DNA of 55,831 bases. Source: Promethearchaeota archaeon. Lineage in GTDB: Archaea > Asgardarchaeota > Lokiarchaeia > Sigyniarchaeales > SOKP01. Numbering within the stretch: position 1 is the first letter of the stretch; each line of letters begins with the position of its first letter. Shown here one piece after another: positions 25,201-50,782 of this stretch. Location of the stretch: assembly GCA_004524365.1 (NCBI GenBank), contig SDNL01000001.1:1-55831 (forward strand). The letters are read 5' to 3'. Both the position numbers and the translations under genes were made by a program. The notes below the pieces were generated by a model. That model was not told the origin of the DNA. It was given only the letters and a program-made list of their open reading frames with translations, and did not search any database.

Positions 25201-26097
25201 ATGGGCTTTAAAAAAATGAAAAAAGCATATAATGCATCTGCAAAAATAATGGAGAAACGGATGGAAAAGGAACGCCCAGAAGACTTTCAAATTTTAAAAA
25301 AAGTTTCTAAATCATCTATTGTGATAGTTAAAGGAACATACGATAAAGTGGAATTAGTTTTAGATCTTATTAATATTCCATATCTCTTAATAGATTCTAA
25401 TCAATTTAATCAAATTGAACTAAATCCTAACCAAATTCTAATAATTAACTGTCCCGGAAACGGTATGGAAGAAAGTCTTACTAAAATTAAGGATTTTGTT
25501 AAACAAGGAGGCTTCTTATTTACAACCGATTGGGCTTTATCAACAATTTTAGAACAAATCTTCCCTGATTTTTTAAAATATAATCAAAGACCAACGCAAG
25601 ATGATTGCGTCGCAGTTGAAATAGTTGATAAAAATAATAAATTTCTTGAGGGAATATTTAAAGCTGATGAAAAACCAATTTGGTGGTTAGAAAGTTCCTC
25701 CTATCCTATTCAAATATTAGATCCTAAAAAGGTTCAAATATTGGTCAAAAGCGAGGAAATGAAGCAAAAATATGGTCAAGATCCTATTGTTATTACTTTT
25801 AACTATGGAGATGGTGGGACCGTTTTACATATGACCAGCCACTACTATCTTCAGCGTTCTGAATTACGGACAAACCGTCATATGAAATCAGCTGCAGACT
25901 ATGCTATGGAGGAGATGGCTTTTTCAAAAGAAGAAGTAATGGAAATCGAAAAAGAACTTAATGGTGTGTCATTAGGAGAGGCTGAATCAGCATATTCTAC
26001 AACCCAGTTTCTCGGTAATGTTATTATTGAGCAACAGAAAAAAGTGAATAAACGATTGACTAAAAAGAAATCAGTTGAAAATAAAGAATCCAAATAA
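25201..26097 (+). CDS. Hypothetical protein (possibly a class-I glutamine-amidotransferase-like / ThuA-like fold)
   Basis: ILIINCPGNG...IKDFVKQGGFLFTTDWAL is reminiscent of GATase1-like folds, but I see no catalytic motif. The coding call rests on ORF length and position. Confidence 0.35.
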   Translation: MGFKKMKKAYNASAKIMEKRMEKERPEDFQILKKVSKSSIVIVKGTYDKVELVLDLINIPYLLIDSNQFNQIELNPNQILIINCPGNGMEESLTKIKDFVKQGGFLFTTDWALSTILEQIFPDFLKYNQRPTQDDCVAVEIVDKNNKFLEGIFKADEKPIWWLESSSYPIQILDPKKVQILVKSEEMKQKYGQDPIVITFNYGDGGTVLHMTSHYYLQRSELRTNRHMKSAADYAMEEMAFSKEEVMEIEKELNGVSLGEAESAYSTTQFLGNVIIEQQKKVNKRLTKKKSVENKESK

Positions 26098-26213
26098 TTC
26101 ACCTTTTTTTCTTTTCCTTAAGAAAATTGTATTAACGAAAAAGAAGATATAAAAAAACAAATATTATTATTATTTTTATAATCATACAATAAGTATTTTA
26201 TAATGATTTTAAT

Positions 26214-27773
26214 TTGCCCATCAAAGTCCTAATTGCTGAAGATTCTGCTTTTGTAAGAAAAAAAATTTCACAAATATTATCATCTAATAATTTAATAGAG
26301 GTTGTTGCAGCGGCAAAAAATGGAGAAGAAGCAGTCGAATTAACATTAAAGTATCTTCCCGATGTCCTAATCTTGGATCTATTAATGCCGAAGATGAATG
26401 GATTAGAAGCATTTAAGAGAATTATGAATGAATACACGGTTCCCACTATAATTTTATCTAGCATGGGACCTAGCAATTTAGATTCATCTATCCAAGCACT
26501 TATAATTGGTGCCTTTGATTATATAATGAAGCCGGGTACTCTTAAAGGGGAAAGTCTAACTCATTTCAAAGATATTTTAATTGATAAAGTAAAACTAGCA
26601 TCTAAATCCCACTTTAAAAGAGCAGATGATAAAAATGAGAAAAAATTTACCCAAATATCCCCCCGGCAAAAATTAGTCAATGAAATATTTGAATTTGGAC
26701 GATTTTTAAAAAAAATTGAGTCATCTGATAAGTCAAATTCAAAGACAAAACTCAAAAATATAGAAGATTTGAATTCAGTTCAAAAGAATGTCCCTCTTTC
26801 CGAATTTAAGCGTCATAAAAAGAATAAAAAAGAAAAAAAAAGAGTTCCAAAAAACATAGAAAAAGATTCTAAGGATGTAAAAAAACCTAAGAATAAAACA
26901 TCAATTAAGAATAAAAACGGGAAAAAGAAAGAATTATTAAAAAAAACCAAAACTTTTAAAGAAAGCGAAAACAATGCCAAAGAAAATAAGAATGGTAAAA
27001 GAAAATATGATAACTATTCTAAGTCTGTGAAGCAAACTTCAAAAGAAACTCCAATACTTAGTGGGAATTTAAAAAAATCTAATTTATACCCAGATCAAAT
27101 AAGTAAAGATATTAATTTAGAAAATAAAGATAAAAAAACATCTCTTACAGCGATTGATCTTCTCTCAAATAGAAATTTTCAAAAATCAAATATAAAAATA
27201 CATAGGAAATTAATAGTTATAGGTGCATCTGTGGGCGGCCCCCAAACAATTAAAACAATCCTAAAAAAACTCCCTAAGGATTATCCATTCCCAATTATCA
27301 TTGTGCAACATCTAAATTCAAAATTTATCAAACCATTTGCACAATCCATGGACGAATTATGTCCAATAAAGGTAAAGGTTGCTGAACACAATGAATTAAT
27401 AAAATCAAGTGTTGTATATATTGCCCCTGGAGAAAAGCATATTAAAGTATCCACAAAAAATCATTATCCAAGTATAAAAATATTTAATGATATTTCTATT
27501 AATTTTTGCAAACCTTCAATTGATATATTATTTATTTCGGCTTCACAAGTATATAAAAATCGGGTAGTAGGGATTTTACTAACAGGTATGGGTAAAGATG
27601 GGGTAAAAGGAATAAAATACATTTACAACAATAATGGATTTACGATATCTGAATCAGAAGAAACTGCTATTTTATATGGGATGCCAAAATTTGCAGTTGA
27701 AAAGGGTGTGGTAAACAAGAGCTTACCAATTGATAAAATTTCCGAATTACTAATTAGATATTCTAATACATAG
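26214..27773 (+). CDS. cheB: CheB methylesterase with receiver domain and an unusually long Lys-rich linker
   Basis: N-terminal REC domain (VLIAEDSAFVRK...LILDLLMPKMNG...). C-terminal esterase with GASVGGP (Ser), QHLN (His) and GMGKDG (Asp). About 200 aa of K/N/S-rich sequence lies between them. TTG start. Confidence 0.85.
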   Translation: MPIKVLIAEDSAFVRKKISQILSSNNLIEVVAAAKNGEEAVELTLKYLPDVLILDLLMPKMNGLEAFKRIMNEYTVPTIILSSMGPSNLDSSIQALIIGAFDYIMKPGTLKGESLTHFKDILIDKVKLASKSHFKRADDKNEKKFTQISPRQKLVNEIFEFGRFLKKIESSDKSNSKTKLKNIEDLNSVQKNVPLSEFKRHKKNKKEKKRVPKNIEKDSKDVKKPKNKTSIKNKNGKKKELLKKTKTFKESENNAKENKNGKRKYDNYSKSVKQTSKETPILSGNLKKSNLYPDQISKDINLENKDKKTSLTAIDLLSNRNFQKSNIKIHRKLIVIGASVGGPQTIKTILKKLPKDYPFPIIIVQHLNSKFIKPFAQSMDELCPIKVKVAEHNELIKSSVVYIAPGEKHIKVSTKNHYPSIKIFNDISINFCKPSIDILFISASQVYKNRVVGILLTGMGKDGVKGIKYIYNNNGFTISESEETAILYGMPKFAVEKGVVNKSLPIDKISELLIRYSNT

Positions 27774-27871
27774 CTATACAAAGTAAAGGAATTGAACGAT
27801 TTAAGATAAATCTCATATATATAACAAAAACATATGTTTTTAAGTATGTTCTATATTATTTTTGTAGAAAT

Positions 27872-30096: not shown

Positions 30097-30900
30097 TTGA
30101 TTTTAAAAATGGAATTACTTCAACAAGCAGAAAAGGATTATAAAAACTGGGGAAATTTTCTTGATATTTCGGGATTTATGGATAAAATAACGACAAATCT
30201 TTCCGAAAAAGGCTTTGAGCGTGGAAACTCCCGTCTTGTTTATAGTGTATGTCCTGATGATGTCAATAGATTGCAAGACTTAAATACAATAGAAAAAGCA
30301 CTTACAAGTGAATATAACAACGAATTTCATTTGGGCGGCCTAGGTGCATACCCTATGGGCGGAGTATCTGGGATAATTGCTGCAAGTCATCACCCTCCTG
30401 ATAGAATTCTAAATGGTGATAGGCGCGGCGGTAATTTAATCTTTTTTATAAGCCCTCATTTCGGTCTTATCGAAAAAGAGAATTACCTCTATGGAAAAAT
30501 TATCAGACCAGGTCAACAAAAAATTACAAGTTCATGTGGTGCAATGATGGGCTTTTTAGATGCTTTAAAAACAGCGGGTAGTCCAAATAATTTTGATATT
30601 ACGCCCGACCCACATACTTTAGACCCTACTCGGATGGTATTACACTCTGAACTCATCAATAATTACTCGGATTGGCTCAATAATATTCTTCAAATGGATG
30701 ATCCTAATGATCAGGTGATTGATCTCTTTAAGTTAAATTACGATTTAGTAATTAATAAGATAGATGAAATGATAGAGGAATTTTTAACATTAGAAGGGGA
30801 TCACTTCGAAGGTGATATCGCAGTAATCGGAGGAGTTACTGTCAATACAGTATCTGGTGACAATTTTATTCTAAAAGAAATTAAATTTCCCAAAATCTAA
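30097..30900 (+). CDS. Hypothetical protein; tentative LCIB/LCIC-like (beta-carbonic-anhydrase-fold) family member
   Basis: Candidate metal ligands are spaced like a beta-CA-type site: VCPDDVNR (Cys/Asp), SPHFG (His) and SSCGAM (Cys). This rests on recollection of the family only. TTG start; an ATG lies at 30109. Confidence 0.3.
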   Translation: MILKMELLQQAEKDYKNWGNFLDISGFMDKITTNLSEKGFERGNSRLVYSVCPDDVNRLQDLNTIEKALTSEYNNEFHLGGLGAYPMGGVSGIIAASHHPPDRILNGDRRGGNLIFFISPHFGLIEKENYLYGKIIRPGQQKITSSCGAMMGFLDALKTAGSPNNFDITPDPHTLDPTRMVLHSELINNYSDWLNNILQMDDPNDQVIDLFKLNYDLVINKIDEMIEEFLTLEGDHFEGDIAVIGGVTVNTVSGDNFILKEIKFPKI

Positions 30901-31053: not shown

Positions 31054-32550
31054 ATGATAACTCAAGGCTTAGCGAAAATTATTGAATCAAGTTCTAATGA
31101 AATTAACTTATTTTATAAAAAAATTGATGAATATTTCAAAGGTAATATGTTAAAAAATATACAAAAATTACCTCTTAATGCTAATGATCCTAAAGAAGTA
31201 TTAAAATCTCTGGTTTCATTAATTTATGATATATTAAGAGATTTGAGTTTTTCAGAACAAGAAATAGAATGTCATTTTTCTTCACTTTGGAAAAGCAATA
31301 TAGAAGATCAGTTAGGAAATAAGAAGGAAATTATGGAGATATATGAGATTTTGTCGCCACTGCTTTATAAACTCTTCCTAGATAAAATCATTAATTACTT
31401 GGCGGATACAAAATCAAATTCTCATATGGCAAAATTAAAGTCTGAGAACTTCTTACCGATTGAATTTATAATAAAATTGAAAGAATTAAGAAAATTTTTT
31501 AATCAAAATTTGGAGAAAAAGGATAGATTACAAAAATATTTGCAAATACAAAATAAAATCTTACAAAAATTAATTAATAATCAAGAAAATATTGAGAAAT
31601 TTCAACAATTGAATGATCCAAGAGATAGAATCCAATTATCCTACATCATGTATCGTATCATAGAATTTTTCAATTTGGAAGGAATGTTTGATTTTTCTCC
31701 TATCCAGGATTACATTAAAGAACATCCGGAACAATGGTTGGATACAATCCCATTAGTTTCATTAAAAAATCCCGATATTTATTACTGTGGGATCTATCTC
31801 ATTAATAAACTTATTATTCCAATGGATATGAATGATGTAAAATACTTCCTTTTAAATATGTATGACGAATGCATTGACGAATTTGAAGCCCCACTCATAG
31901 AAGCTACAAATCAAGTTTATTTCTTTTTTAAGTCCTCTTGGATGGCAAGGCTAGAGCTTTCTAACAGACAAAATAAAGAACTACTCAAAGGAGATAAAGT
32001 TTATTATACCACATCCTATCTTAGAAATCTCGAAACTTCTCAATTAGTTCTAATTTTAAGAGTATATAATCATTTAGATTTATTTGATAAATTGGATCAA
32101 GATAAAATTAAGCCGATTACCAATGAAATAGAGAGAAGAGTCTCGGAAAAGGGGATTAAACAATTTCGGGATGGTTTTATCTCTGCAGAAGCTACATACC
32201 ATGTCTTATTTTATAAATATATGAGAAATAGTTTAGAAGGACTTCAAACCCAAAAGATTTTGGATAATATTATTTCTCGTATTTATAGAAATCTACAACT
32301 TATTGATTTTTCAGAAGATATTAATTATGACTTGCTCACTGAATTGTTTTATGCATGTCAGAGCCTTCAATTATTAAATTGTATCGAAAATGAGTCTATG
32401 GTGGAACTACTTGCTAAGCATCTTTTCCCAACAAGGGTCCTTCAAAAATTTATAGATTCTGATGAGACCCCTACTTTCAATAACTCAAAACTTTTTGAGC
32501 TCAAGATATCAAAAGATACAGGCGACCTTATTCATGAAATTAGGCACTGA
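31054..32550 (+). CDS. Hypothetical all-helical protein
   Basis: A long ORF (498 aa) with local codon usage. I recognise no catalytic motif. The C-terminal half has recurrent aromatic-rich helices (IYYCGIYLINKL, VYFFFKSS, ATYHVLFYKY, LFYACQSLQLL). Confidence 0.4.
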   Translation: MITQGLAKIIESSSNEINLFYKKIDEYFKGNMLKNIQKLPLNANDPKEVLKSLVSLIYDILRDLSFSEQEIECHFSSLWKSNIEDQLGNKKEIMEIYEILSPLLYKLFLDKIINYLADTKSNSHMAKLKSENFLPIEFIIKLKELRKFFNQNLEKKDRLQKYLQIQNKILQKLINNQENIEKFQQLNDPRDRIQLSYIMYRIIEFFNLEGMFDFSPIQDYIKEHPEQWLDTIPLVSLKNPDIYYCGIYLINKLIIPMDMNDVKYFLLNMYDECIDEFEAPLIEATNQVYFFFKSSWMARLELSNRQNKELLKGDKVYYTTSYLRNLETSQLVLILRVYNHLDLFDKLDQDKIKPITNEIERRVSEKGIKQFRDGFISAEATYHVLFYKYMRNSLEGLQTQKILDNIISRIYRNLQLIDFSEDINYDLLTELFYACQSLQLLNCIENESMVELLAKHLFPTRVLQKFIDSDETPTFNNSKLFELKISKDTGDLIHEIRH

Positions 32551-32585: not shown

Positions 32586-33236
32586 TTAAATTGATTTGAT
32601 CTTTTTGACTACTTCTCGAAGTTGTAAACTTCCCATCCCTAATCTTATCTCTTTAGAGAAAATTAAAATGAGAATAACTTCATAATCTTCTGCTAAATTA
32701 GTAAAGATTGAACATACCTTTTGTTTGTTCTCTAACTCAAGAAACATTTTCCTAACCTTTATCAATTTTTTTTGATTTCTTACTTCAAATTCTTTAATAG
32801 TATTTAATAATGTCTTATGTGGGAGGGAAGAGTAGAGAACCTTACCTGTAACCGTTAATAAAGCACTTCCAATAACCTCTTTATCATCAACACACTCTCT
32901 TAAAATATATAAAATATCTTCGAAGATATCCAAGGAGTTGAGATTTTGATCCATCGAATTTACCGATTCTTGAGTTTTTCCTTCAAAAAATTCCATTTTT
33001 GAGAATTCAAAATCAATTTTTTGATATCCTCGAGGTACATAATTTTTATCAATATAAACCTGGAAGCTGTGCCCGCAAATCAATCCTTTCGGAACTGAAA
33101 CAGTCGTTAACTGCTTACTTTCATTAATTATTTTAGAGGGGATCATAAGATGATCCTTTTTATCACAAACAGGACATTTTATCAATGTCTCTGTATATTG
33201 ATTACCCTCTGTGCTTGTATCTTTTTCACTTATCAT
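32586..33236 (-). CDS. Zinc-ribbon protein with C-terminal Roadblock/LC7-like domain (paralogue of 50171..50782)
   Basis: CPVC...CGHSF ribbon followed by RGYQKIDF. The C-terminal EVIGSALLTVTGKVLYSSLP...EVILILIFSKEIRLG fits a Roadblock-like pattern by eye. Confidence 0.5.
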   Translation of the reverse strand: MISEKDTSTEGNQYTETLIKCPVCDKKDHLMIPSKIINESKQLTTVSVPKGLICGHSFQVYIDKNYVPRGYQKIDFEFSKMEFFEGKTQESVNSMDQNLNSLDIFEDILYILRECVDDKEVIGSALLTVTGKVLYSSLPHKTLLNTIKEFEVRNQKKLIKVRKMFLELENKQKVCSIFTNLAEDYEVILILIFSKEIRLGMGSLQLREVVKKIKSI

Positions 33237-33494: not shown

Positions 33495-33809
33495 ATGGCA
33501 TTAGAGATAGGTGAACTAACAGGTCTCATCATGATTTCGGTGGCAGTCGTAATATTTATTATCTCAATGATTCTACAAAAATCATTGATTAAATATTTCC
33601 CTGGTATTATCTGTACCTGGTTTATCTTTCTATTTACAAATATAGAGGCACTTCCAGAGATTGCAACAGAATTGGCTGATTTATTTAACTTGTTTGAGCA
33701 TACATTCATTATGCTGTCCGCAATATGCTTCACTTTGGGAATTCTGTATGAATATTATTCCGGGTTTATTCGGAGTAAGCTTGATCATATGGCGAGAGGT
33801 GAAAAGTAA
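33495..33809 (+). CDS. Small three-helix membrane protein, or the detached N-terminal membrane part of the MCP
   Basis: Three hydrophobic helices. The stop lies 1 nt before the MCP ATG, and the MCP frame is also open across 33661..33810. Confidence 0.4.
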
Positions 33810-35840: not shown

Positions 35841-35846
35841 AAATAT

Positions 35847-36431
35847 GTGATTAAAAAAATGCAAAAAAATATTTATGAGAAAGAAAACATTTCAATTATT
35901 ATTTTTAATGTGGGCTGGGAAGAATTCGCGATCGATCTCTTAGATGTTAAAGAAATTATACAGGCAGGACAAGTAAGAAAACTTCCAAAAAGTATGGATT
36001 TTATCGATGGAATTTATAACTATCGCGGGGAAATCATCCACATTATTAATTTACGTAAAAAACTTAATTTGGATGAGTATAAATTATATAGATCCAAAAA
36101 GGAATTATATGAAAGTAAAAAAGAGGGAGAAACTGTTAGTGAAGAGCAAATAGGAGGTTCTAATGGGGGGACAGCAAAAAAATATATAATAATTGTTAAT
36201 GTTGATAACAAAAATATTGGATTTTATGCTGATAAAATTCATAATGTTTCTCAAATTAACAAGAGCGATATTATAGACCTCACTCCTATATTTCAAACAA
36301 GCGTGGATGTTAATTATATTAAAGGGGTTATTCGATTTGAGGATCGACCTCGAATCCTAATAAATCTTAGTAAAGTATTAACCGAAGCCGAAGCTCAAAT
36401 GATTCAAAAAGAATTAGATTCAAGAAAATAA
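35847..36431 (+). CDS. cheW: CheW coupling protein (with a ~35-aa insertion)
   Basis: FAIDLLDVKEIIQ...P......GIYNYRGEIIHIINLRKKL and a C-terminal IKGVIRFEDRPRILINL. GTG start; an ATG lies at 35859. Confidence 0.8.
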   Translation: MIKKMQKNIYEKENISIIIFNVGWEEFAIDLLDVKEIIQAGQVRKLPKSMDFIDGIYNYRGEIIHIINLRKKLNLDEYKLYRSKKELYESKKEGETVSEEQIGGSNGGTAKKYIIIVNVDNKNIGFYADKIHNVSQINKSDIIDLTPIFQTSVDVNYIKGVIRFEDRPRILINLSKVLTEAEAQMIQKELDSRK

Positions 36432-42000: not shown

Positions 42001-42134
42001 AGAGAGCTGATACTATTTCATTTACAATTGAGAGTATTTTACCTTTCCAAGAAGAGGAAATAAGATATTATGTAAGAAGTAAAGGAGATGAAACCTTAGA
42101 TCAAGAAAAATTAGAATCATATTTATTAACTTAA
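39012..42134 (+). CDS. Large cytoplasmic protein: N-terminal beta module, ~380-aa K/E coiled coil, then several Ig-like (CARDB/DUF11-like) beta-sandwich modules
   Basis: No signal peptide or TM segment. The central region (about 39490..40630) is heptad-rich and K/E-rich. A recurrent motif of type x-(I/L)-x-(V/I)-x-N-x-S/G-x-x-x-I-x-(D/E)-(V/I) appears at least five times (ITIVNNSEKNRIWDVNL, INIENDSENKVKEVKL, MIFKNNSDINMKLNSIL, LTLKNTGTIPIKGMVV, LIVNNSSNIEITDIKI). Confidence 0.5.
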   Translation: MGFKRVSKEELEQSKAPPFLGPPLQTTERLELLGKESLKSKKQFTHKESNIFLLAQENFKFEYTKNGALDNFEGIGDITIVNNSEKNRIWDVNLSYSGTENIFEYYTFINEDKKTNLGNFEPQTNKNLDYKIKDTKNIINPIKIFEKITVSNLNKENLGTKIKKRKIRKLEKEIQKKKEKTKVQIEEKYGKKIKSLQSEIKNKDNDIDKVLETLSKHTKKKNQLQKDINTLKKVINNLKKEKKEEKYEILERYLKKEDLNRNINELLEETKQKLESLKSKIPEIKKNYSNKQKMIKNEIEEKYNQKITQANKEVEKREDELARAYKKEEEWTKKEDRLENVVGKIEDRLKSLEDKFKIKKAETELKEKEGQYKKAEEKADKFADKVKSLKKSIKNLKKDIKSYKKNKNKELDSQLENLTDEEENKIEEYMDKIDKNKGLLKGIQNIIEKYEEDLKEYREKLKEHQVKLLDTGKEIENWMEKKEEIRLKINGLQDEVERLEKLKEKELKKEISRIKKKKEKREQRILDGYDDMIGEKLRDNYYLLFNTQNMLNYSINIENDSENKVKEVKLAKQFSDEFSDFKYESSSVSDVNINKNTIIFSIPSLDPGEKAEITIHTSIKPIERKIIGTGNIQLSYIYENRLISGLKFEELNGYSHAMHAMKIKEKETAPNKWTCQMIFKNNSDINMKLNSILVLDKEKRNKYLDLDFNSDKDGKLVKPQETFFSEKWEVEDKNEPKFYRKLNYSITHKTEKKSLMNLNLEESIFEIIDLSVEKKFTKSKIKSYEGSDLSCTLTLKNTGTIPIKGMVVKEIIPKDFLPPQDLSSFSIATSSGKDIADKVQIEILPDDQDASSSHEISIRVNLENIKPLELINVNENIKITYPFKAIKPDHTKEYNFPLNFTSYYPKEKKSPEDFYYISGTLPAQKLPNLDVIHQRRNLLIAKEIFPGRNVDEFAISLIVNNSSNIEITDIKIDDTLPNSIEVVSSNKEYNILDSDLERADTISFTIESILPFQEEEIRYYVRSKGDETLDQEKLESYLLT

Positions 42135-42135
42135 A

Positions 42136-42140
42136 GGAGG
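42136..42140 (+). promoter_or_regulatory. Shine-Dalgarno-like GGAGG, 6 nt upstream of the ATG at 42147
   Basis: The sequence aaaGGAGGaaaaaaATG lies in the 12-nt gap after the preceding stop. This is consistent with an internal ribosome-binding site in a polycistronic mRNA. Confidence 0.45.
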
Positions 42141-42146
42141 AAAAAA

Positions 42147-43004
42147 ATGAATTATCAATATTACAAAACATTAATGGACAAATCTGAGGAGAATTTATTT
42201 TTCTTAATTGAGAAAATAGTACCTGCACCTTTAAAGGAAGAATTAGGTCTTTTTTTAGAAGGATTTAACCTTGGAAAAATTAAAAAATCTTCTCTTGAAG
42301 AGAATTTTATTCAGATTAATCCATTAAACAAAAATTATGCTGACTTATCTAAACTCAATTCCCAACAATTAAAGGAAATATACGAAACTTTCATTAGTAG
42401 AGAAAAAAACGATAAAAAGGCGGTAAAATGGAGATTGCTCCGGTATTTGAGAATTCAAAAAGATATACAATTAGAAACACTTCACATTAATGTTGATATG
42501 AATGAAGATAATGCAGTGGATATAATCTTCGAAACTAAAAATCATAAGTATTACTTTATAAATTGTAGTTATATTCTAGAAAAGGAATATTATTACAATT
42601 TAATAGAAAAACTTATCGCCTTTTCTAAAAAAATTAACCTTAAACCTGAAAAAATCGTATTTTCTGCTCATAAAACCTATAGAGATATTCCTTATAAAGA
42701 AGATATTCAAGTAGGTAATATAAAATATGAGATAGAAAAAGAAATCTGGGTAGAATGGACAGAATTAGAAAAACCTTTTAATGGGGAAGATCTTCTTCTA
42801 ATCCTGAGTAATAATGAAAAAGATTTAGAACTTGCGGGATTTAATTTTACCAGCATCCAAACATTGTTGGATTATGTGTATAGATATTCTAAAGGAGGAC
42901 AAATTGCTATATATAAACAGCCTGGGTTTTTCTCGGCAAAAAGTAATGAAAATCCTCAAATTGAATTAATTTGGAAAGGAATTATGTTAAAAAATAAAAT
43001 TTAA
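42147..43004 (+). CDS. Hypothetical protein between cheA and cheC (CheF-like role possible but not recognised)
   Basis: A 285-aa ORF with a Shine-Dalgarno motif and tight operon spacing. I could identify no motif. Confidence 0.45.
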   Translation: MNYQYYKTLMDKSEENLFFLIEKIVPAPLKEELGLFLEGFNLGKIKKSSLEENFIQINPLNKNYADLSKLNSQQLKEIYETFISREKNDKKAVKWRLLRYLRIQKDIQLETLHINVDMNEDNAVDIIFETKNHKYYFINCSYILEKEYYYNLIEKLIAFSKKINLKPEKIVFSAHKTYRDIPYKEDIQVGNIKYEIEKEIWVEWTELEKPFNGEDLLLILSNNEKDLELAGFNFTSIQTLLDYVYRYSKGGQIAIYKQPGFFSAKSNENPQIELIWKGIMLKNKI

Positions 43005-43033
43005 ACATATTTTAAACAAAGAATAAAAATGAG

Positions 43034-44977
43034 ATGAGAAATATGGTAGAGACATTATCTGACAGTAAAAATATAAATGTTGTAATAATTGGAATAAAAA
43101 GTGAGAAATATCTAATAAAAGTAGAAAAAGTAAAGGAAATATATGTTCCAAAGGATAATATAGTACCTATCCCATTAGCAGATAAAACAATTACAGGTGT
43201 AATCGATATTAGGGGAGAAGTCTATTCTATTTTATCTTTGAGAAAAAAAATATATGATGAGGAAAATCTCCATCATATTCATAAAGATAATCGAGTGCTA
43301 TTATTAGAAACTAATGGTGTAAATCTTTCAATACTTGTTGATGAAGTAATAGGCGTTAAAGAAATTCCAACTTCGGTTTTTAATCATGGTGCGCCAATTA
43401 TTGAAACCGATCTTGATATAAAATTCATTGAATCCGTTGCAATTATTGAAGAAAATACCTATATTCTATTAGATATCGATGCCTTCATTAAAAGTTTCAA
43501 TATTGATTTAAACTATAATAGGATTGAACCAATTTCGCCTTCGCGAAAAGAAACTAAGGGAGGAAGTTCCAATATAAGTATTGAAACAAAAAGACCGGAT
43601 ACATCTCCCATATCCTCTAGTGAAACTTACGAAATAGGAGGAAAATTATCTGAATTAAAAGATAAAATTAAATTAAATCCTGAACAAGAGGATATGCTTA
43701 AAGAGATTGGAAATATTGGCTCAGGAAATGCAGTGACTGCACTTTCTCGATTGATTAAGAAGAAAATTGATATCGATTTAACTAATGTTGGAATTGTTTC
43801 CTTTGACAATTTGACGGATCAATTTGGAGGTCCAATGGAAAAAGTATGCGGAATATTCTCCCAAATTAAGGGGGCGCCCCAATCATCGATCCTCCAAGCT
43901 TTTGAGCTGAAACCGCTAATGAAATTGATTTCATCTTTAATTGGTGATGATTCTCAAATAGATCCAGAAAATGTATCATCTAAAAAGGATCTTGATGACT
44001 TTGCGATCTCAACTATTACTGAAATGGGAAATATATTAGCGGGTCATTATGCATCTGCTTTAGCAGATTTGACGGGAACTAAAATGATGATCAATGTCCC
44101 TGAGTTTTCTGTTAGTGATATCGGTTCAATTGGGAAATTTTTAAGCCAAGAATTAAAAACAATCTATACATATATAGTGGTCATAAAAACATCAATTAAG
44201 GTTGTAGACTATGAATTAAATGGAGTATTTCTTTTCATTCCTGGCTTGGATACACTTTATAAATTCTTTGATCAGTTGGGAATCAATTATAAACCACAAG
44301 AATCATCAAGAAAATTCCATAAGAAATCTTTAAATTCGGATAATTTAGAACTTACAGAAATTCAAAGAGATGCTCTTCAAGAAATTGGTAATATTGGTTC
44401 TGGTAATGCCGCAAATGCTTTAGCTAAAATGGTGAATCAAAAAGTAACAATTGCTATTCCAAAGGTAGAAATGATGACTATTGATAAATTTTCTAAGAAG
44501 TTACAAACAAATGATAACCTATATACATCTTGGAGTAATGTAAAAGGGAAAACTCGCGCAACGGTGTTAACAATTTTCCAAATATCTGATATCATTGAAA
44601 TAACTGCTATTCTAACTGATGATAAGAAGAAAAAACAATTGGATCTCAGAAAAAAGTATGATAGCGTGGAAAAGTTCCCCGAAATGTATCAAAGTGCTAT
44701 GAGTGAGCTAGGAAATATTCTAGCTTCAAATTACGTATCCTCGCTCGGAGATCTCTTAGATATTCGATTAATGACGGACCCTCCTGATATGATCATAGAT
44801 ACGAAAGAACAGTTATTTACAAATTTAAGAGACCAAATTGGATTTCTAGAAAAATTATCTTTAGTAATAACTACTGCTGTTATAATCACTGATATCAAAA
44901 TAGAAGGAGCCTTTTTATTTGTTCCTGAAATAGAAACTCTACATGAACTTCTAAAAGCGCTTGAAAAGTTCTATTAA
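43034..44977 (+). CDS. cheC: CheW-like domain fused to two CheC-type phosphatase domains
   Basis: N-terminal CheW-like domain (YLIKVEKVKEIYVP...ITGVIDIRGEVYSILSLRKKI). Then two CheC units, each with LKEIGNIGSGNAVTAL / LQEIGNIGSGNAANAL and E-x2-N-x22-P-type sites (TEMGNILAGHYASALADLTGTKMMINVPEF; SELGNILASNYVSSLGDLLDIRLMTDPPDM). Confidence 0.75.
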   Translation: MRNMVETLSDSKNINVVIIGIKSEKYLIKVEKVKEIYVPKDNIVPIPLADKTITGVIDIRGEVYSILSLRKKIYDEENLHHIHKDNRVLLLETNGVNLSILVDEVIGVKEIPTSVFNHGAPIIETDLDIKFIESVAIIEENTYILLDIDAFIKSFNIDLNYNRIEPISPSRKETKGGSSNISIETKRPDTSPISSSETYEIGGKLSELKDKIKLNPEQEDMLKEIGNIGSGNAVTALSRLIKKKIDIDLTNVGIVSFDNLTDQFGGPMEKVCGIFSQIKGAPQSSILQAFELKPLMKLISSLIGDDSQIDPENVSSKKDLDDFAISTITEMGNILAGHYASALADLTGTKMMINVPEFSVSDIGSIGKFLSQELKTIYTYIVVIKTSIKVVDYELNGVFLFIPGLDTLYKFFDQLGINYKPQESSRKFHKKSLNSDNLELTEIQRDALQEIGNIGSGNAANALAKMVNQKVTIAIPKVEMMTIDKFSKKLQTNDNLYTSWSNVKGKTRATVLTIFQISDIIEITAILTDDKKKKQLDLRKKYDSVEKFPEMYQSAMSELGNILASNYVSSLGDLLDIRLMTDPPDMIIDTKEQLFTNLRDQIGFLEKLSLVITTAVIITDIKIEGAFLFVPEIETLHELLKALEKFY

Positions 44978-45088
44978 TATAATGAAGCATTTATTTCCAA
45001 TGAAAAAGTAGCTTAAAAATCTTTATTTTTTTATCAATTTTATTAGAAATTACAATTAAATAATCCAAAAATATCATGAAAAAATAAC

Positions 45089-45613
45089 ATGCCAAATATT
45101 AAATATAGAGAAAAAATATTTCAAGTGGTTGGAGAAAATATAAAGCCAAATCCAAAAACCATTTTTAATCCTGAGGAAGTTTATCTATTTATTGATGAAA
45201 ACCTTAATGTGATATGGATCTGGGCTGGTGAGAAATCAAAACTATTTCATAGATACATTGCATCCTCATGGGCTGGTAAATTAAAGAGTAAAAAACAGTA
45301 TTTTAATTACAATTATGAACTTGTGAAACAAGGAAGGGAACCAAAAAAATTCAAAGTAATTATTGATGAAGTAGAAGAAGGAAGATCAGATCTGAATTAT
45401 CCCGGAGAATCTAGGACTCTTGAAATTAGTGTCAAATCCAAATCTAAAAATGATTTACATTCAAATCGATATTCACAAAAAATACCAAATAAAAAGGTTG
45501 CTAAAATTACAGCCATTCTCTCTGAAGTTCAAGAAATGCAAAGTCATATTAGATATTCTCTAGAACATATAGGAAAGCGCATTAGAAAGATAGATGAAAT
45601 TTTGAATAGTTAA
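45089..45613 (+). CDS. Single gelsolin-domain protein with C-terminal helical tail
   Basis: FQVVGENIKP......EVYLFIDENLNVIWIWAGEKSKLFHRYIASSWAGKLKS....ELVKQGREPKKF follows the gelsolin-repeat pattern (l..v.g....v...l.s.d.yiLd....iy.W.G..as..e...a...a..l......i..v.eg.Ep..F). Confidence 0.55.
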   Translation: MPNIKYREKIFQVVGENIKPNPKTIFNPEEVYLFIDENLNVIWIWAGEKSKLFHRYIASSWAGKLKSKKQYFNYNYELVKQGREPKKFKVIIDEVEEGRSDLNYPGESRTLEISVKSKSKNDLHSNRYSQKIPNKKVAKITAILSEVQEMQSHIRYSLEHIGKRIRKIDEILNS

Positions 45614-45672
45614 TTAAAAAATTTCTAATTAACTAAAATTTAGAAAAGAAAATAGAAAAAAATAACTTAAAA

Positions 45673-46626
45673 ATGATAAATTCATCACTTTTAGATACTT
45701 TACTTGAAAATTTTCTAAATCAAGTTAATGATTTAACTGCCGTGTTGGTTGTCGATGCAGATGGACTTATAATCGCTCAAGAATCAACCAAAGACTTTGA
45801 TGAACAAATAATCGCTGCCATTATGGCTATTCTGGATCAAACAATAAATAAGATTAAGAAATATGCCGAAACTTCCTTTGGGAGTGGGACTCTAGATACT
45901 AATGAATTCCGCTTGTTTTATTTAGAATTAGGAGGAGATTTCCCTGTTATATTCGTAATAGTAACCGATTCGTACACAAATATCGATAAATACATCCCTT
46001 ATTCATACCTAGTCGCCGAAAAAGTATCTCTCTTAATAAATAATACAAATGATATTAATGTTAGACTTCCAGAACTCCTTGAAAATGGAGAATTAAGATT
46101 TAATTCTTGCAAGAGTTCTAACAAACGTACCAAGAATTATATTTTGGTAATTGGTCCTCAAAAAGTAGGGAAAACGGCATTAGTAAATAAATATACAAAT
46201 AATGCATTTATTGAACATTATAAACCAACTATAGGATTATCAATAGTTAAAAAAGAACTTCAAATCTCTAAGAAAATTCAATCTATTCTTTATCTATTTG
46301 ATATGGGTGGATTTAAGGCATTTGGTAAAGTAAGGAAGCATTTTTATGAATCGATTGATATTAAAACAATAGTACTTGTTTTTGATTATTCCAAAGAATC
46401 TACTTTAGATAAAATTAATGATTGGTTTTATGAAGTCAATTTATTTAATAAACAAGAAAGCATTCAATATGTTTTAGTTGGAAATAAAATTGATAAAATT
46501 GATTATAGAGAGGAAATTAGAAAAAAAGCTGAGAATATAGCAAATGAATATAATTGTAGGTTATATGAGACATCCGCTCTTACAGGACAGGGTATTGATG
46601 AACTATTTATGAATATAGCCTTTTAA
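45673..46626 (+). CDS. Roadblock/LC7 domain fused to a Ras/Rab-like small GTPase
   Basis: The N-terminal VNDLTAVLVVDADGLIIAQES...IAAIMAILDQT...FPVIFVIVTD is a classic Roadblock/MglB-like pattern. The C-terminal G domain has G1 GPQKVGKT (46153..46176), G2 PTIG, G3 DMGGF (46300..46314), G4 GNKID and G5 ETSA. Confidence 0.75.
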   Translation: MINSSLLDTLLENFLNQVNDLTAVLVVDADGLIIAQESTKDFDEQIIAAIMAILDQTINKIKKYAETSFGSGTLDTNEFRLFYLELGGDFPVIFVIVTDSYTNIDKYIPYSYLVAEKVSLLINNTNDINVRLPELLENGELRFNSCKSSNKRTKNYILVIGPQKVGKTALVNKYTNNAFIEHYKPTIGLSIVKKELQISKKIQSILYLFDMGGFKAFGKVRKHFYESIDIKTIVLVFDYSKESTLDKINDWFYEVNLFNKQESIQYVLVGNKIDKIDYREEIRKKAENIANEYNCRLYETSALTGQGIDELFMNIAF

Positions 46627-46674: not shown

Positions 46675-48756
46675 TTGATGCCAATAAAGATGAATAAAAA
46701 AATTAACGCCGTGAAAGCCAAGTTTATTAATCCAATAAAAGAACTTAGTATTCCAACTTTCATTATTGACTCAAATCATAACGTAATTGAATGGAATAAA
46801 GCCATTAAGAACTTGACAGGAGTAAGGCGAAAGGAGATACTTGGCACTTCTAATGCTTGGAAGGCCTTTTATTCAGAAAAGCGCCCTACTTTAGCAGATC
46901 TCTTACTGGATGGAAAGATAGAAGAGATAGAAACATATTTTCAAAACTTTTCAAAGGCAAAGCATTGTCTTAGAGGTTATACTGCTGAGAAATGGCTTGA
47001 AATAAATTATGAGAGATTATATCTTATCATGACTGCTACCGCAATTCTGGATAAAAAAGGGGAGATCATTCAAATTATACAAACAATTGAAGATAGGACA
47101 GAATCAAAACATATAAAGGATAGAAAAGAGTTTTTAAATTCAATATTTCGGCATGATGCAAATAATATGATAAATGTATGCCACGGGTTTCTCAAATTAT
47201 TGGAAAAAACTGAATTAACAGAAGTGCAGAAGGACTATCTTCAAGAAGCTATTAATGCTTCGCGTGGAGTAATCAGCATCATTGAAAAAGTAAGTAAACT
47301 TCAAAAAGTTGGAAGGGAAGAGACTCAAGACCTGTCATTAGGGGATTTAATTCAAGAAATTGTAAATAAAAATCAATTCCAAGCAAAGGAAAAAGGTATT
47401 ACGATTGAAGTATGTCTTCCAGAATTTAGCTCAAATGTCCAAGCAGGGGAATTGCTTGAAGATGTGTTTATTAATATAATTGGAAATTCATTGCAACATA
47501 GTCAATGCGACAAAATTAAAATCTCGGGAAGAGAAAGTAAGGATGCAATTATTTGTTGTATTGAAGATAATGGAAAGGGAATAAAAGAAGAAGATAAAGA
47601 AATGATATTTAATCAAGGATTTAAGAGAGGAAAAAGTGCTGGATCAGGATTGGGGTTATTTCTTGTTAAAAAGATTACTAATAATTATGGGGCGAAAGTT
47701 TATGTAAAGGATTCTCAACTTGGTGGTGTGAAATTCGAAGTTCAATTAAAGAAGAGTAAAGGAAGACCAGAAAAAAGAAGAAATTCATTATCTCAAATTG
47801 AAAATGATTTTCATCTCACAGAAGATTCTTTACTTAATAATGAACATCATCTCCAAAATTTAATTGTTGTGGTCGATGATAATTTACAATTTTTAACCTA
47901 TATGAAAGTTTTACTAGAAAATTATGATTACAAAGTGGAAACTTTTAGAAGTGCTGTAAATGCCTTATCATATATTGAAAATCAGGACTATCACTCTATT
48001 CCTGATCTTATTATTTCTGATATACGCATGCCAGAACTCTCAGGATATGAATTCTTTAAGAATCTTTCTTCTAATCCAAAATTAAATCGCATTCCTTTTA
48101 TATTCCTTTCTGGGTTGAGCTCGAAGGATGATATTAGATTAGGAAAATATCTTGGAGCTGATGATTATATTACCAAACCGGTTTATGAAGAAGATATCCT
48201 TGCTTCGATTAAAGGAAAACTCCGTAGAAAAAAAGCAGGGAGCGTGTTTGAAACGGAAATTGATAAATATTTAAATTTAGAACAAAAGCGAGACAATAAA
48301 CTTGAAAATATGAAGTTTGATGAGGAAATCGTTCTTTTTTTGATATTTTGGGATGATAAAAAAGGTCCAAAATTAATTGAACAATATCCTGAGAAAAGCA
48401 GAATTTCACTTTCTGTTGATAAACTTGGTACTCAAATATTTCAAGCAATCGTTCCAATATATGGGCAATCAAAAAATATTGTAAATGCGGAAGATGTATT
48501 ATTTAGAATCGAAAATATCAATAAACATGCGTATCTTTACTTTGATGCATTTTATGATGAGTCAAAGCGATCTAAACAGACAGAATTTATGCTTTCAGTA
48601 ATCGCTCCAACGATAAGTTATTTTGAATCATTAAAATTAAAAAAAATATTATCTAATCTCTCAAATATATTAAAAGAAGATAACGACACGAAAAAAATAA
48701 ATTTCAGGCAGTATTGGAAAGACATTTTAGGCATTTTAAGTAAATTTGAAAATTAA
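46675..48756 (+). CDS. Hybrid sensor kinase: PAS - HisKA - HATPase - REC - extra C-terminal alpha/beta domain (longin/Roadblock-like, tentative)
   Basis: H-box FRHDANNMINV, N-box NIIGNSLQHS, G-boxes EDNGKGI / GSGLGLFLVKKI. REC domain (VVVDDN...LIISDIRMPELSGY...ITKPV). The final ~150 aa (IVLFLIFWDDKKGPKLIEQYPE...) have no kinase-related motif. TTG listed; ATG at 46678. Confidence 0.8.
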   Translation: MMPIKMNKKINAVKAKFINPIKELSIPTFIIDSNHNVIEWNKAIKNLTGVRRKEILGTSNAWKAFYSEKRPTLADLLLDGKIEEIETYFQNFSKAKHCLRGYTAEKWLEINYERLYLIMTATAILDKKGEIIQIIQTIEDRTESKHIKDRKEFLNSIFRHDANNMINVCHGFLKLLEKTELTEVQKDYLQEAINASRGVISIIEKVSKLQKVGREETQDLSLGDLIQEIVNKNQFQAKEKGITIEVCLPEFSSNVQAGELLEDVFINIIGNSLQHSQCDKIKISGRESKDAIICCIEDNGKGIKEEDKEMIFNQGFKRGKSAGSGLGLFLVKKITNNYGAKVYVKDSQLGGVKFEVQLKKSKGRPEKRRNSLSQIENDFHLTEDSLLNNEHHLQNLIVVVDDNLQFLTYMKVLLENYDYKVETFRSAVNALSYIENQDYHSIPDLIISDIRMPELSGYEFFKNLSSNPKLNRIPFIFLSGLSSKDDIRLGKYLGADDYITKPVYEEDILASIKGKLRRKKAGSVFETEIDKYLNLEQKRDNKLENMKFDEEIVLFLIFWDDKKGPKLIEQYPEKSRISLSVDKLGTQIFQAIVPIYGQSKNIVNAEDVLFRIENINKHAYLYFDAFYDESKRSKQTEFMLSVIAPTISYFESLKLKKILSNLSNILKEDNDTKKINFRQYWKDILGILSKFEN

Positions 48757-48908: not shown

Positions 48909-49844
48909 TTGATTCAAACTATGAAAAGTCTAAAGCTAATAATTGCAGGTTTAGATTATGCTGGGAAGACAAGTTCCATTATTGCTCTTAGAGAAAAATA
49001 TAATTTTTACGAAAAAGTGGAAAATTTGAAGCCCACGGTCAAGATTGAATATAGTAGTTTCAACTTTCTCAATCAATGGGAAGTTAATATTTGGGATATG
49101 GGTGGACAAGAGAAGTATAGACAAATTTATTTAGATAAACCAGAATATTTCGCAGATACAAATTATTTCTATTATTATATTGATATTCAAGATGAAAAAA
49201 AGATCTCCGAATCAATTAATTATTTTGAAGAATTATTAACAATTTTGAAAGATTTTAATTATTCTAATAAAATAATAATCTGTTTTCACAAATATGACCC
49301 AAAATTAAGAAGAAATAAAGATATTCTTGAAAGAATTACAAGTGTAAAGAAAAAACTTAAACAAAATGAACATTTTGAGTTTAAATTCTTTAGAACTTCA
49401 ATTTTTGATATTTCAACTCTTTCTAAAGCAATCTCATATTCATTAAATAGCTTAATTGATTTTAGTGTTTTAAAGCTAATTTTAAAGGGATTAATTCGAA
49501 AATTTAATGGAAATTATGCAATTTTATATACTGATTCAGGTGTGATACTTGTTGATTTTTATAAAGAAATTTTAGATTCGATTGAATATGAAGAGAAAGT
49601 ACGTCAATCAATTAACCGTGACCTTGTACTCATTCAAAAATTGAAGGATGATAATGTTGAATTCAATGAACGAGTAGATTATGATGAAGAGATTAAATAT
49701 TTAAAAAAATATGAGATTGGGGACAATATTTTCTTTCTAAAGATGAACGCTCCAAAAATGAGAGAGGAAAAAATACAATTATTGAAAAATAACTTTCAAA
49801 ATTTCGAAAACGACCTCCAAGAGATATTTTCAAATAATTCGTAA
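48909..49844 (+). CDS. Rag/Gtr-like (Arf-related) small GTPase with C-terminal Roadblock-like domain
   Basis: G1 GLDYAGKTS, G2 PTV, G3 WDMGGQEKYR (49092..49109). G4 is HKYD (49287..49298), the HKxD variant characteristic of Rag/Gtr GTPases rather than NKxD. The C-terminal ~125 aa (GNYAILYTDSGVILVDFYKE...) look Roadblock-like. The 311 aa length is close to eukaryotic RagA. TTG listed; ATG at 48921. Confidence 0.65.
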   Translation: MIQTMKSLKLIIAGLDYAGKTSSIIALREKYNFYEKVENLKPTVKIEYSSFNFLNQWEVNIWDMGGQEKYRQIYLDKPEYFADTNYFYYYIDIQDEKKISESINYFEELLTILKDFNYSNKIIICFHKYDPKLRRNKDILERITSVKKKLKQNEHFEFKFFRTSIFDISTLSKAISYSLNSLIDFSVLKLILKGLIRKFNGNYAILYTDSGVILVDFYKEILDSIEYEEKVRQSINRDLVLIQKLKDDNVEFNERVDYDEEIKYLKKYEIGDNIFFLKMNAPKMREEKIQLLKNNFQNFENDLQEIFSNNS

Positions 49845-49910: not shown

Positions 49911-50156
49911 TGCTCTGCTATTTCTTCTTCCTCATAGTCTGGAGATTACATTGGTAGAACAAATATCATATCTTTTAACCATTTATTAGTAATCATAAAT
50001 GATTTTTTGTTTTGCTCAGATTTAAAAACAAAGACTATTATTAATTATTCTGAATTGACCAGTTAAAACTGTTGATATTTATTACAAATAATACACCAAA
50101 AAATTTTTAATATTAATTATGTGTCAATTCACAACTATTATAAGGGTTATTAATAA

Positions 50157-50162
50157 AGGAGG
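50157..50162 (+). promoter_or_regulatory. Shine-Dalgarno-like AGGAGG, 8 nt upstream of the ATG at 50171
   Basis: The sequence aataaAGGAGGtattcttaATG. Confidence 0.45.
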
Positions 50163-50170
50163 TATTCTTA

Positions 50171-50782
50171 ATGTTGGTAAATATTTTATGTCCGTATTGT
50201 AAGAAAATGTTTCGAAAGGAAATTACAAATACAAAAAAATCTGGGACTCTTTATTCCACACTAATAAAGGCCCAAGATGGACATGAAGGATGTGGTGCAT
50301 TTTTAGCATTTATCGATAATAACGGAATGCATCGGGGCTCTCAAAAAATTGATCATATTGAAGAAGCACATTCCGAAAATGAAACTTATATTAATCAAGC
50401 ACTTAAAAATATAAATGAATTGGATGAAAAAATTAGATTCTATCATCTTAAAATCCCTAAAACAAAATTCAAACGTTCCTTTGAGTATAAAGTGGCCAGC
50501 GTAAAGGATAGGGCATTTATGAGTTCACGCACTTATAAAGGCTTATTTAATTTTGTTAAAGATTGTAGGAATGATAATATGTTTGGAATGCTTTCTTTAG
50601 ATTCGGATGCTGAACTTGATGGCTCATTAGTCTATGGAAAATATATGGGGTTACTCTATGTTCTCTATTGGAATAATCAAAAAAAAATAAGAAATAGTTC
50701 TTGGGATGAAATCAAAGGCTATACCAATCTTACTGTTGAAAAACTTATTGAGTTGTACGAATTGATCGATTTATTCTTTTAA
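50171..50782 (+). CDS. Zinc-ribbon protein, paralogue of 32586..33236
   Basis: CPYCKKMF...GCGAFLAFIDNNGMHRGSQKIDH aligns with CPVCDKKD...CGHSFQVYIDKNYVPRGYQKIDF. The C-terminal alpha/beta region is possibly Roadblock-like. Confidence 0.5.
   Translation: MLVNILCPYCKKMFRKEITNTKKSGTLYSTLIKAQDGHEGCGAFLAFIDNNGMHRGSQKIDHIEEAHSENETYINQALKNINELDEKIRFYHLKIPKTKFKRSFEYKVASVKDRAFMSSRTYKGLFNFVKDCRNDNMFGMLSLDSDAELDGSLVYGKYMGLLYVLYWNNQKKIRNSSWDEIKGYTNLTVEKLIELYELIDLFF

Follow-up and report, generated by a model that had tools for sequence, protein, structure and literature searches.

The window analysed here, a 55,831-nt stretch of a Lokiarchaeial contig (SDNL01000001.1), carries a chemosensory (Che) gene cassette in which the CheA-CheW-CheY core is interleaved with lineage-specific genes, among them g15, encoding a gelsolin-domain protein, and g16, encoding a Ras-type GTPase fused to a Roadblock domain. 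The genomic linkage of the Che core with g15 and g16 is strong, and the cassette is found only in Lokiarchaeia. The unit consists of positions 35022-46626 together with the gene for a methyl-accepting chemotaxis protein (MCP), a 104-residue open reading frame (ORF) in front of it, and the displaced genes for CheB and for a CheR-CheD fusion. In Myxococcus xanthus, the Frz pathway controls a polarity module made up of MglA, a Ras-like GTPase, and MglB, a Roadblock GTPase-activating protein (GAP). We read the cassette as a chemosensory pathway of this Frz/MglA-like kind, with a GTPase switch and an actin regulator as its output, and give this reading, the mechanism of which we infer, a probability of roughly 0.45. 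The more specific proposition, that phosphorylated CheY (CheY-P) controls g16 and a dedicated gelsolin in some Lokiarchaeia and so steers actin-driven protrusions, is doubtful. An original prediction made for this DNA had proposed a supercluster joining Che genes to GTPases and cytoskeletal regulators. Its core idea is partly supported and survives in a narrower, better-supported form: g15, g16 and the longin/Roadblock gene g08 are tied to the Che core, whereas the Rag GTPase and the hybrid kinase that it also included, and the 203-residue protein that it put at the border, are not.

The cassette was compared across about 45 related genomes, with CheA and then g13, a gene of the cassette, as anchors. 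Loci were fetched from nine relatives, from 20 further genomes, as 41 species-representative loci (these sets overlap) and from two database contigs. A carrier is defined here as a genome with a g13 orthologue, of which there are 40 among 135 family genomes; counts are given without P-values because related genomes are not independent. The recurrent order is (g06 on the opposite strand)-g08-CheW-CheY-CheA-g12-g13-CheW-CheC-CheC-g15-[CheR-CheB-CheD-CheC]-g16-CheB. The part of it that runs from g08 through CheW, CheY, CheA, g12, g13 and the CheW-CheC-CheC fusion to g15 is kept in the nine relatives, which span five genera and two families, and likewise in the 20 and 41 further loci. Even where the proteins are 40-55 % identical, gene order is maintained between genera, between families and into a second order, the last represented by the Helarchaeales-labelled G169.

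Within this arrangement, 33 of the 35 loci that are informative have g15 directly after CheW-CheC-CheC. Orthologues of g15 were detected in 38 of the 40 carriers and in one other family genome, G207 (58 % complete, with CheA fragments), which is itself a fragmented carrier. Closest-tier (tier-1) orthologues of g16 are present in 30 of the 40 carriers and in G207, and in none of the 94 other family genomes. Of 30 loci, 21 have g16 inside the cassette, flanked by CheC and the final CheB; in G012 and G014 it is on the cassette contig at a distance of about 14 kb. In the genus to which the window belongs the cassette is rearranged, with the adaptation genes shifted upstream, a fusion of CheR with CheD, and g16 immediately after g15. 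Two genomes, G177 and G224, appear to be exceptions in having CheA without g13; in both, the contig ends inside g12. The distribution of the cassette is patchy even at close range, with 22 of 54 species in one genus carrying it. In the complete chromosome of G201 (CP070831) the cassette is split, with CheY-CheA-g12-g13 at about 0.36 Mb and, at about 1.44 Mb, the adaptation genes accompanied by g15 and g16, which are separated by 4 kb.

The signalling core of the cassette is of a familiar type, and CheA, CheW, CheY, the MCP and the CheB/CheR adaptation proteins all score above Pfam cut-offs. CheA has the domain series Hpt-P2-dimerisation-HATPase-CheW (Pfam), and its orthologues in cassette carriers are 47-76 % identical. 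CheY (Response_reg, 1.2e-26) retains the phospho-acceptor Asp and the acidic pocket, and its alpha4-beta5-alpha5 face (residues 88-114) is invariant in an alignment of 12 orthologues, which fits a conserved partner. The CheW-CheC-CheC/X fusion (Pfam CheW 2e-19, CheC 2.9e-41 and CheX 1.2e-14; NCBIfam CheC 3.5e-67) is a predicted CheY-P phosphatase, tethered via its CheW domain. Of the displaced adaptation proteins, CheB (Response_reg 1.2e-21, CheB_methylest 5e-56) matches the terminal CheB of loci L041, L045 and L046 over its full length at 41-42 % identity and is, judged by these alignments, the orthologue of the long 'CheB2' with which the canonical cassette of other genera terminates. It is the sole CheB of the window and has an insert of about 220 residues, with no assigned domain, between its REC and methylesterase domains. 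The CheR-CheD protein (Pfam CheR_N, CheR 2.6e-44, CheD 1.1e-13) is fused in the three same-genus genomes in which the region is seen (G000, G002 and G004); elsewhere CheR and CheD are separate genes, as in L037 and L038, and in other genera they are placed after the gelsolin-domain gene.

The MCP (MCPsignal, 1.8e-29; hydropathy maximum 2.89) is membrane-bound, with a hydrophobic N-terminus and no large extracellular domain. Its longest ORF begins with TTG at 33661; a GAGGTG precedes an ATG at 33811, orthologues align from about residue 52, and 33811 is the likely true start. The 104-residue ORF is translationally coupled to the MCP gene and has hydrophobic stretches (about three by eye), and ORFs 39-54 % identical to it occur upstream of the MCP in G001-G004. 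It may be a membrane or sensor partner of the MCP, because its stop codon abuts the MCP start and it is conserved in that position. The two overlapping frames, both matching relatives, could also be taken for a frameshifted MCP gene; this was rejected, as G001 has an identical two-ORF layout with abutting stop and start. The five carriers examined for receptor number have 1, 1, 4, 10 and 1 MCP genes.

The protein encoded by g15 has a single gelsolin-homology domain (residues about 1-110), strongly conserved in the orthologue alignment. A linker that varies between orthologues connects this domain to a C-terminal helix (about 138-172), which is again conserved. The protein has no Pfam match. 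As a single sequence it finds Heimdall 2DGel (1.8e-6) and Thor ProGel (1.6e-5) with phmmer, and when the orthologue profile is searched against PDB all eight matches are gelsolin-superfamily chains (ProGel, 5.7e-7). Across the 135 family genomes, g15 orthologues score at E<=1e-40 and every other gelsolin paralogue at E>=1e-14, a separation by which g15 is classed as a cassette-specific paralogue of the Asgard gelsolins. Among these it most resembles 1DGelX/GelX (Akil et al. 2020, PMC7444086; Radler et al. 2025 preprint), having likewise one domain, a linker and a C-terminal helical segment; it is similar in sequence to ProGel and 2DGel, and differs from all of them as a distinct paralogue tied to the che cassette. 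Thor 1DGelX, with one gelsolin domain and a predicted coiled coil, severs and nucleates actin (PMC7444086), and the architecture of g15 parallels that of this actin-severing protein as far as layout can be compared.

The g16 product begins with a Robl_LC7 domain (8e-6) followed by a Ras domain (2.7e-31). Its closest solved chains are Rab12, Rab7 and Thor-Rab, and its 60 best solved relatives are Rab, Ras and Rap proteins, MglA being absent among them. The G1-G5 GTP-binding motifs are intact in 21 of 21 orthologues, which, like the invariant face of CheY, is a sign of function. Nearly all of the proteins (the window copy and 21 orthologues) carry Leu, Ile or Phe after the DxGG motif, at the position of Ras Gln61, which suggests that GTP hydrolysis by g16 may depend on a partner. 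MglA also carries the catalytic Gln at the Ras Gln61 position. The Roadblock domain of g16 is better conserved than its GTPase domain. Beyond the tier-1 orthologues, which are about 320 residues long, paralogue tiers are widespread: one of about 440-460 residues with a C-terminal extension (41-48 % identity) occurs in some cassette-less genomes, and another of about 340 residues (about 33 % identity) in nearly every family genome.

The first gene of the cassette, g08, adjoins CheW in nearly all loci. It has no Pfam match, and its profile gives a weak match to dynein LC7 (E 0.3); its AlphaFold2 (AF2) model (predicted local distance difference test, pLDDT, 81.6) has two alpha-beta-alpha longin/Roadblock units. 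Foldseek places the model with Mon1/Ccz1, LAMTOR/Ragulator and the Loki Roadblock-Longin structure 8yqg at E values of 2e-5 to 6e-4, and also with the Fuzzy/Inturned longin proteins; the probability for Mon1/Ccz1 is 0.99-1.0, and the target-normalised template-modelling (TM) scores for LAMTOR subunits are 0.55-0.75. On the strength of this model, g08 is classed as a tandem longin/Roadblock-fold protein. Upstream of g08, the opposite-strand gene g06 is present in about 20 of 41 loci and is a divergent neighbour of the cassette. A Roadblock-like C-terminal half of g06 was considered and found to be unsupported, as hhalign comparison of the g06 and g16 profiles with g08 gave no signal (effective number of sequences, Neff, about 2). 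In the cassette-less loci L106 (G191:C419) and L107 (G239:C52), g06 and g08 remain and are followed by a 3' CheB fragment of 60-77 residues, which looks like the deletion of the whole block from CheW to CheB; g06 and g08 also remain in cassette-less L105 (G204:C52), where g06 is split in two pieces. A multi-PAS histidine kinase is often found upstream of g06/g08 on the opposite strand (L065, L070, L076, L083, L087, L091, L094, L095, L037 and L038). It is only distantly similar to the product of window positions 23585-25057 and could be a second input or regulator.

The two remaining cassette-specific genes are g12 and g13, which separate CheA from the phosphatase gene in all loci, divergent ones included. 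The g12 protein (DUF11, 5e-14) has no strongly hydrophobic segment and is read as cytoplasmic. Residues 1-160 form a conserved N-terminal domain; a variable coiled coil spans about 160-540, and the remainder (540-1040) is made up of beta-sandwich repeats of the DUF11 type. Orthologues range from 675 to 1064 residues, and the coiled coil, a dispensable part, is absent in the forms of about 670 residues. A search of the ESM Atlas with g12 returned only other archaeal DUF11 proteins. For g13, no match was found in Pfam or NCBIfam or among PDB sequences, and Foldseek with its AF2 model (pLDDT 87.3) returned nothing at E<=0.001. Its central domain bears no more than a weak resemblance to nuclease folds of the PD-(D/E)xK type (VIA-align Z 6.6-7.1), and the ESM Atlas points, again weakly, in the same direction. 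D125 is invariant and E/D145 is present, yet there is no conserved Lys of the D...(D/E)xK motif, and since the catalytic motif is not conserved g13 is not called a nuclease. The g13 family is found in 46 of 400 genomes of the phylum (Asgard), all of one class, and in 6 of 36,145 prokaryotic genera, all Lokiarchaeia; about 190 database clusters hold it, all unnamed and all labelled Asgard.

In canonical archaeal chemotaxis, CheY-P acts through CheF and ArlCDE on the archaellum. CheF (PF04283), archaellin (PF01917) and the T2SSF/ArlJ-type platform protein (PF00482) were not found in the source metagenome-assembled genome (MAG; G000, 62 % complete) or in ten 93-100 %-complete carriers from five genera, whereas the searches detected their targets in control archaea (three in the case of CheF). 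Arch_fla_DE (ArlC/D/E, PF04659) was also not found in G000. The earlier remark that no archaellum gene or CheF was recognised in the window thus holds, for CheF, archaellin and the platform protein, in the incomplete MAG and in the ten carriers as well. Four of five relatives do have T2SSE-like ATPase matches that exceed the Pfam cut-off. The best of these, in G003 and G014, reach 76 and 62 bits; the others are weak, at about 27 bits, and a platform gene accompanies none of them. With CheF, archaellin and a platform gene not found, the conventional Che outputs appear to be absent in carriers. The cassette shares CheA (with P2), CheW, CheY, CheB, CheR, CheC, CheD and MCP with the canonical archaeal system, and differs from it in these output components, which were not found, and in the five lineage-specific genes that occupy its operon.

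The window has about 30 % G+C, and the MAG from which it comes comprises 1.89 Mb in 166 contigs and is 61.7 % complete; its nearest relatives are labelled Promethearchaeota/Lokiarchaeota, BAJALOKI bins among them. The region 25201-50782 contains 20 ORFs (Table 1), of which 19 are on the forward strand, g06 being the sole ORF on the reverse strand. The original description of this region was accurate in most respects. Genes are nearly all on one strand, the intergenic gaps between 35022 and 48756 are short (6-111 nt), and Shine-Dalgarno-like GGAGG, GAGGT or GGTG words precede g13 (42147), g12 (39012), CheA, g19 and the likely MCP start (33811). The gene assignments that it listed are borne out by Pfam and fold comparisons, and those of GTPase, Roadblock and gelsolin proteins in particular were upheld by profile and fold searches; its gene order omitted four genes between CheR-CheD and the MCP, namely the carbonic anhydrase, the 498-residue protein g05, the reverse-strand Zn-ribbon protein g06 and the 104-residue ORF. 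It had also described two Zn-ribbon paralogues as bracketing the cluster. The products of g06 and g19 are indeed distant paralogues (BLASTP 3e-8), but the protein at the stated left border, g01, is not a Zn-ribbon protein, because it has no CxxC motif. No meaningful match was obtained for g08, g13, g06, g19, g05, g01 or the N-terminus of g12 in sequence searches of Pfam (E up to 10), NCBIfam and PDB. Spacers have 10-26 % G+C, with T-runs and TATA-like words everywhere. Positions 36868-46626 are found in sediment metagenome DNA runs only, one of which is probably the source, with no RNA run listed.

Table 1. Genes and open reading frames of region 25201-50782 of the window.
Feature	Positions	Strand	Basis or remark
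g01	25201-26097	+	no CxxC motif
CheB (REC + ~220-aa insert + methylesterase)	26214-27773	+	Pfam
CheR-CheD fusion, 704 aa	27872-29986	+	Pfam
LCIB-type beta-carbonic anhydrase	30097-30900	+	Pfam
g05, 498-aa protein	31054-32550	+	
g06, 216-aa Zn-ribbon protein	32586-33236	-	CPVC...CGH motif
104-aa membrane ORF	33495-33809	+	ORF list, relatives
MCP, ~373 aa	33811-34932	+	Pfam
g08, tandem longin/Roadblock, 272 aa	35022-35840	+	AF2 + Foldseek
CheW	35847-36431	+	Pfam CheW 2.5e-25
CheY	36447-36845	+	Pfam
CheA	36868-38976	+	Pfam
g12, DUF11 protein, 1040 aa	39012-42134	+	Pfam
g13, 285 aa	42147-43004	+	no sequence match; AF2 model
CheW-CheC-CheC/X fusion	43034-44977	+	Pfam, NCBIfam
g15, gelsolin-domain protein, 174 aa	45089-45613	+	PDB sequence/profile matches
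g16, Robl_LC7 + Ras GTPase	45673-46626	+	Pfam
g17, PAS-HisKA-HATPase-REC kinase	46675-48756	+	Pfam
g18, Gtr1_RagA GTPase	48909-49844	+	Pfam 1e-23
g19, 203-aa Zn-ribbon protein	50171-50782	+	paralogue of g06

Several of these genes are neighbours of the unit and not components of it, namely g17, g18, g19, the carbonic anhydrase gene and g05. The original prediction had counted g17 and g18 in the cluster and put g19 at its border; cassette order is conserved across relatives, but the adjacency of these three genes is confined to the genus, where they follow the cluster in only two genomes. The Rag/Gtr-like GTPase g18 is a genuine Gtr1_RagA match with no relation to Che: its orthologues occur in 53 of 135 family genomes irrespective of Che, lie on other contigs in G002 and G012, and adjoin the cassette only in G001 and G004. 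Orthologues of g05 are near-universal (120 of 135 family genomes), again with no relation to Che. The carbonic anhydrase gene and g05 recur near the cassette in several genera, and both are probably unrelated to Che. The kinase g17 has a domain of about 165 residues after REC (48262-48753) without a Pfam match, in which the stretch '...FLIFWDDKKGPKLIEQYPE...' by eye recalls the beginnings of longin/uDENN-type domains.

The pathway that we propose would begin with the receptor modulating CheA, which would in turn phosphorylate CheY. With apparently no rotary motor as its target, CheY-P would act on cassette-specific proteins, with g12/g13 the most likely adaptor, and its signal would set the nucleotide state or location of the g16 GTPase. 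The Roadblock/longin modules, that is, the N-terminal domain of g16 itself and perhaps g08, may serve as a platform for GAP or guanine nucleotide exchange factor (GEF) activity towards g16. The pathway would also control g15, which would locally sever, cap or nucleate Lokiactin filaments, and the outcome would be biased growth or retraction of actin-filled protrusions that steers shape change or crawling. Lokiarchaeia have recently been reported to crawl via actin-dependent protrusions, and gelsolin-homology proteins to co-precipitate with Lokiactin (bioRxiv 10.1101/2025.11.30.690169). The candidate actin regulators listed in that preprint are gelsolins, profilins and an Arf GTPase; chemotaxis does not figure in it. 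In L. ossiferum, che genes and putative chemoreceptor arrays have been described (PMC9834061). Actin-dependent crawling and putative arrays both fit the proposed pathway, although neither of the two reports draws a link from chemotaxis genes to gelsolins or GTPases. Our literature search found no paper linking Lokiarchaeal che genes with gelsolin, Roadblock or GTPase genes, and none describing a gelsolin encoded within a che operon; in the original prediction, too, a characterised arrangement of this kind was said not to be known to its author.

Several known systems are instructive for comparison. Like Frz with MglA/MglB, the cassette links a Che phosphorelay to a Ras-superfamily GTPase and Roadblock-fold proteins, with no rotary motor switch; receptors are likewise few, with one MCP in three of the five carriers examined, and the presumed outcome would again be control of cell polarity or direction. 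It differs from Frz in that the GTPase gene lies inside the che operon and the GTPase, which carries a fused Roadblock domain, resembles Rab/Ras proteins and not MglA. Further differences are the gelsolin-domain protein, with which the effector would be actin, the lack of any type IV pilus or gliding genes among those found, and the lack of FrzZ/FrzX/RomR-type extra response regulators identified with the cassette. The g16 protein has the architecture described for Asgard Roadblock (RB)-GTPases (Tran et al. 2024, PMC10933270). GTPase genes of MK-D1 are generally not in operons with RB/longin genes (Tran et al. 2024, PMC10933270), whereas the cassette holds GTPase and RB/longin genes together, within a che operon. 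There is also a resemblance to the Mon1-Ccz1/Rab7 and Ragulator-Rag systems, as the best fold matches of g08 are Mon1/Ccz1 and LAMTOR and the relatives of g16 include Rab7; it differs from Ragulator-Rag in that the genuine Rag-like GTPase of the window is unlinked to the cassette.

A number of observations weigh against an output through g16 and g15. The interactions and activities invoked are predictions from sequence, and the source MAG is incomplete. A quarter of carriers are without a g16 orthologue, so that the GTPase cannot be the sole output. The single MCP of three of the five carriers suits a dedicated pathway with an alternative function better than it suits broad chemotaxis. That g15 binds actin is predicted solely from about 30 % identity to ProGel over 66 residues, and g12 and g13, the proteins most tightly bound to the Che core, have no informative fold (Z about 7 for g13). 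At least three genomes have kept a g08 orthologue after losing everything else of the cassette, and lower-scoring paralogues of g08 are widespread, the best-scoring orthologues being those beside CheW; for both reasons the tie of g08 to Che is weaker. In G171, a genome of the same order in a single contig of 6,035,313 bp, three Che loci (L100-L102) are without g12, g13, g15 and g16, and the CheA copies are only 26-33 % identical to that of the window. In one of the three, a gene for a Ras-like GTPase is found some 4 kb away from CheA, and a second yields a weak match of Roadblock type. A complex prediction for g08, g13 and g15 with CheY as the scored partner gave a score of 0.00; as an uncontrolled four-chain calculation outside calibration, it weighs neither for nor against the pathway.

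Other explanations of the cassette must be considered alongside a GTPase and actin output. The accessory proteins may be structural or positioning parts of the chemoreceptor array, with the output elsewhere or of another kind; g12 and g13 would then scaffold the array, g15 would tether it to actin, and g16 and g08 would control the site of its assembly, for which ParC/ParP or FrzB provide a bacterial comparison in array positioning. The universal presence of g12 and g13 between CheA and a CheW-domain protein, the long and length-variable coiled coil of g12, and a phosphatase with its own CheW domain, which points to an elaborate array architecture, all speak for such a role, as does the observation of putative arrays in only 2 L. 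ossiferum tomograms (PMC9834061). It would, however, leave the pathway without a recognisable output where CheF, archaellum and pilus platform genes were not found, and a GTPase that is conserved and retains its motifs looks more like a switch than a scaffold; we regard this role as unlikely. We hold it to be equally improbable that the pathway is unrelated to motility, CheY-P and the Rab-like GTPase instead regulating membrane trafficking or remodelling, syntrophic contact or development, and the gelsolin domain of g15 being an interaction module unconnected with actin. A gelsolin-homology domain serves as a protein-interaction module in Sec23/24, and g15 is a divergent paralogue of the canonical Asgard gelsolins. 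The closeness of g16 to Rab GTPases, the Rab-GEF longin proteins that are the best fold matches of g08, the single MCP of some carriers and the lack of an extracellular domain in the window's receptor point the same way. Against this, all significant PDB matches of g15 are actin-binding gelsolin-superfamily proteins, and its layout parallels that of an actin-severing one; the Frz system, which does control motility, also has a single receptor, and some carriers have 4-10 MCPs.

Two further accounts are far less probable. The linkage might be functionally meaningless, g15 and g16 being passengers of a mobile or frequently lost che island, and the patchy distribution of the cassette, together with its apparent loss as a block that left g06-g08 and a 3' fragment of CheB behind, speaks for this. 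Passengers are hard to reconcile, however, with an order kept at the observed degree of divergence across genera, families and a second order, with proteins under clear purifying selection, with g15/g16 orthologues not being found in che-less genomes among the 135 searched, and with the split cassette of G201, in which g15 and g16 stay together with the adaptation genes; we consider this very unlikely. It is just as improbable that the pathway drives an archaellum or a type IV pilus whose genes lie elsewhere and escaped detection in the MAGs. The incompleteness of G000 and the T2SSE-like matches above the cut-off leave some room for a motor of this kind, and genes for both chemotaxis and an archaellum are present in some Asgard lineages (bioRxiv 10.1101/2025.07.22.663070). 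Against it, archaellin, CheF and T2SSF were not found in the ten carriers of 93-100 % completeness while controls were detected; Arch_fla_DE was not found in G000 either, and most T2SSE matches are weak, with no adjacent platform protein.

For Lokiarchaeia that appear to be devoid of archaella and pili, the cassette offers conserved candidate links between the Che system and its output in g12, g13, g15 and g16, all four amenable to expression and to in vitro tests that need no genetic system. Should the proposed wiring prove wrong, the comparison still delimits a Lokiarchaeia-only chemosensory cassette with two new conserved protein families. If a GTPase and actin output is correct, gradient sensing coupled to a small-GTPase switch and actin remodelling would have existed in archaea. 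Flagella/archaella and type IV pili/MglA would then be joined by a third type of Che output, and the Asgard 'eukaryotic signature' GTPases and Roadblock proteins would gain their first defined physiological pathway. Such a system would join a prokaryotic sensory input to motility of the eukaryotic style, in which a GTPase acts on actin, and would be the first molecular route by which the archaea most closely related to eukaryotes could direct their crawling chemotactically.

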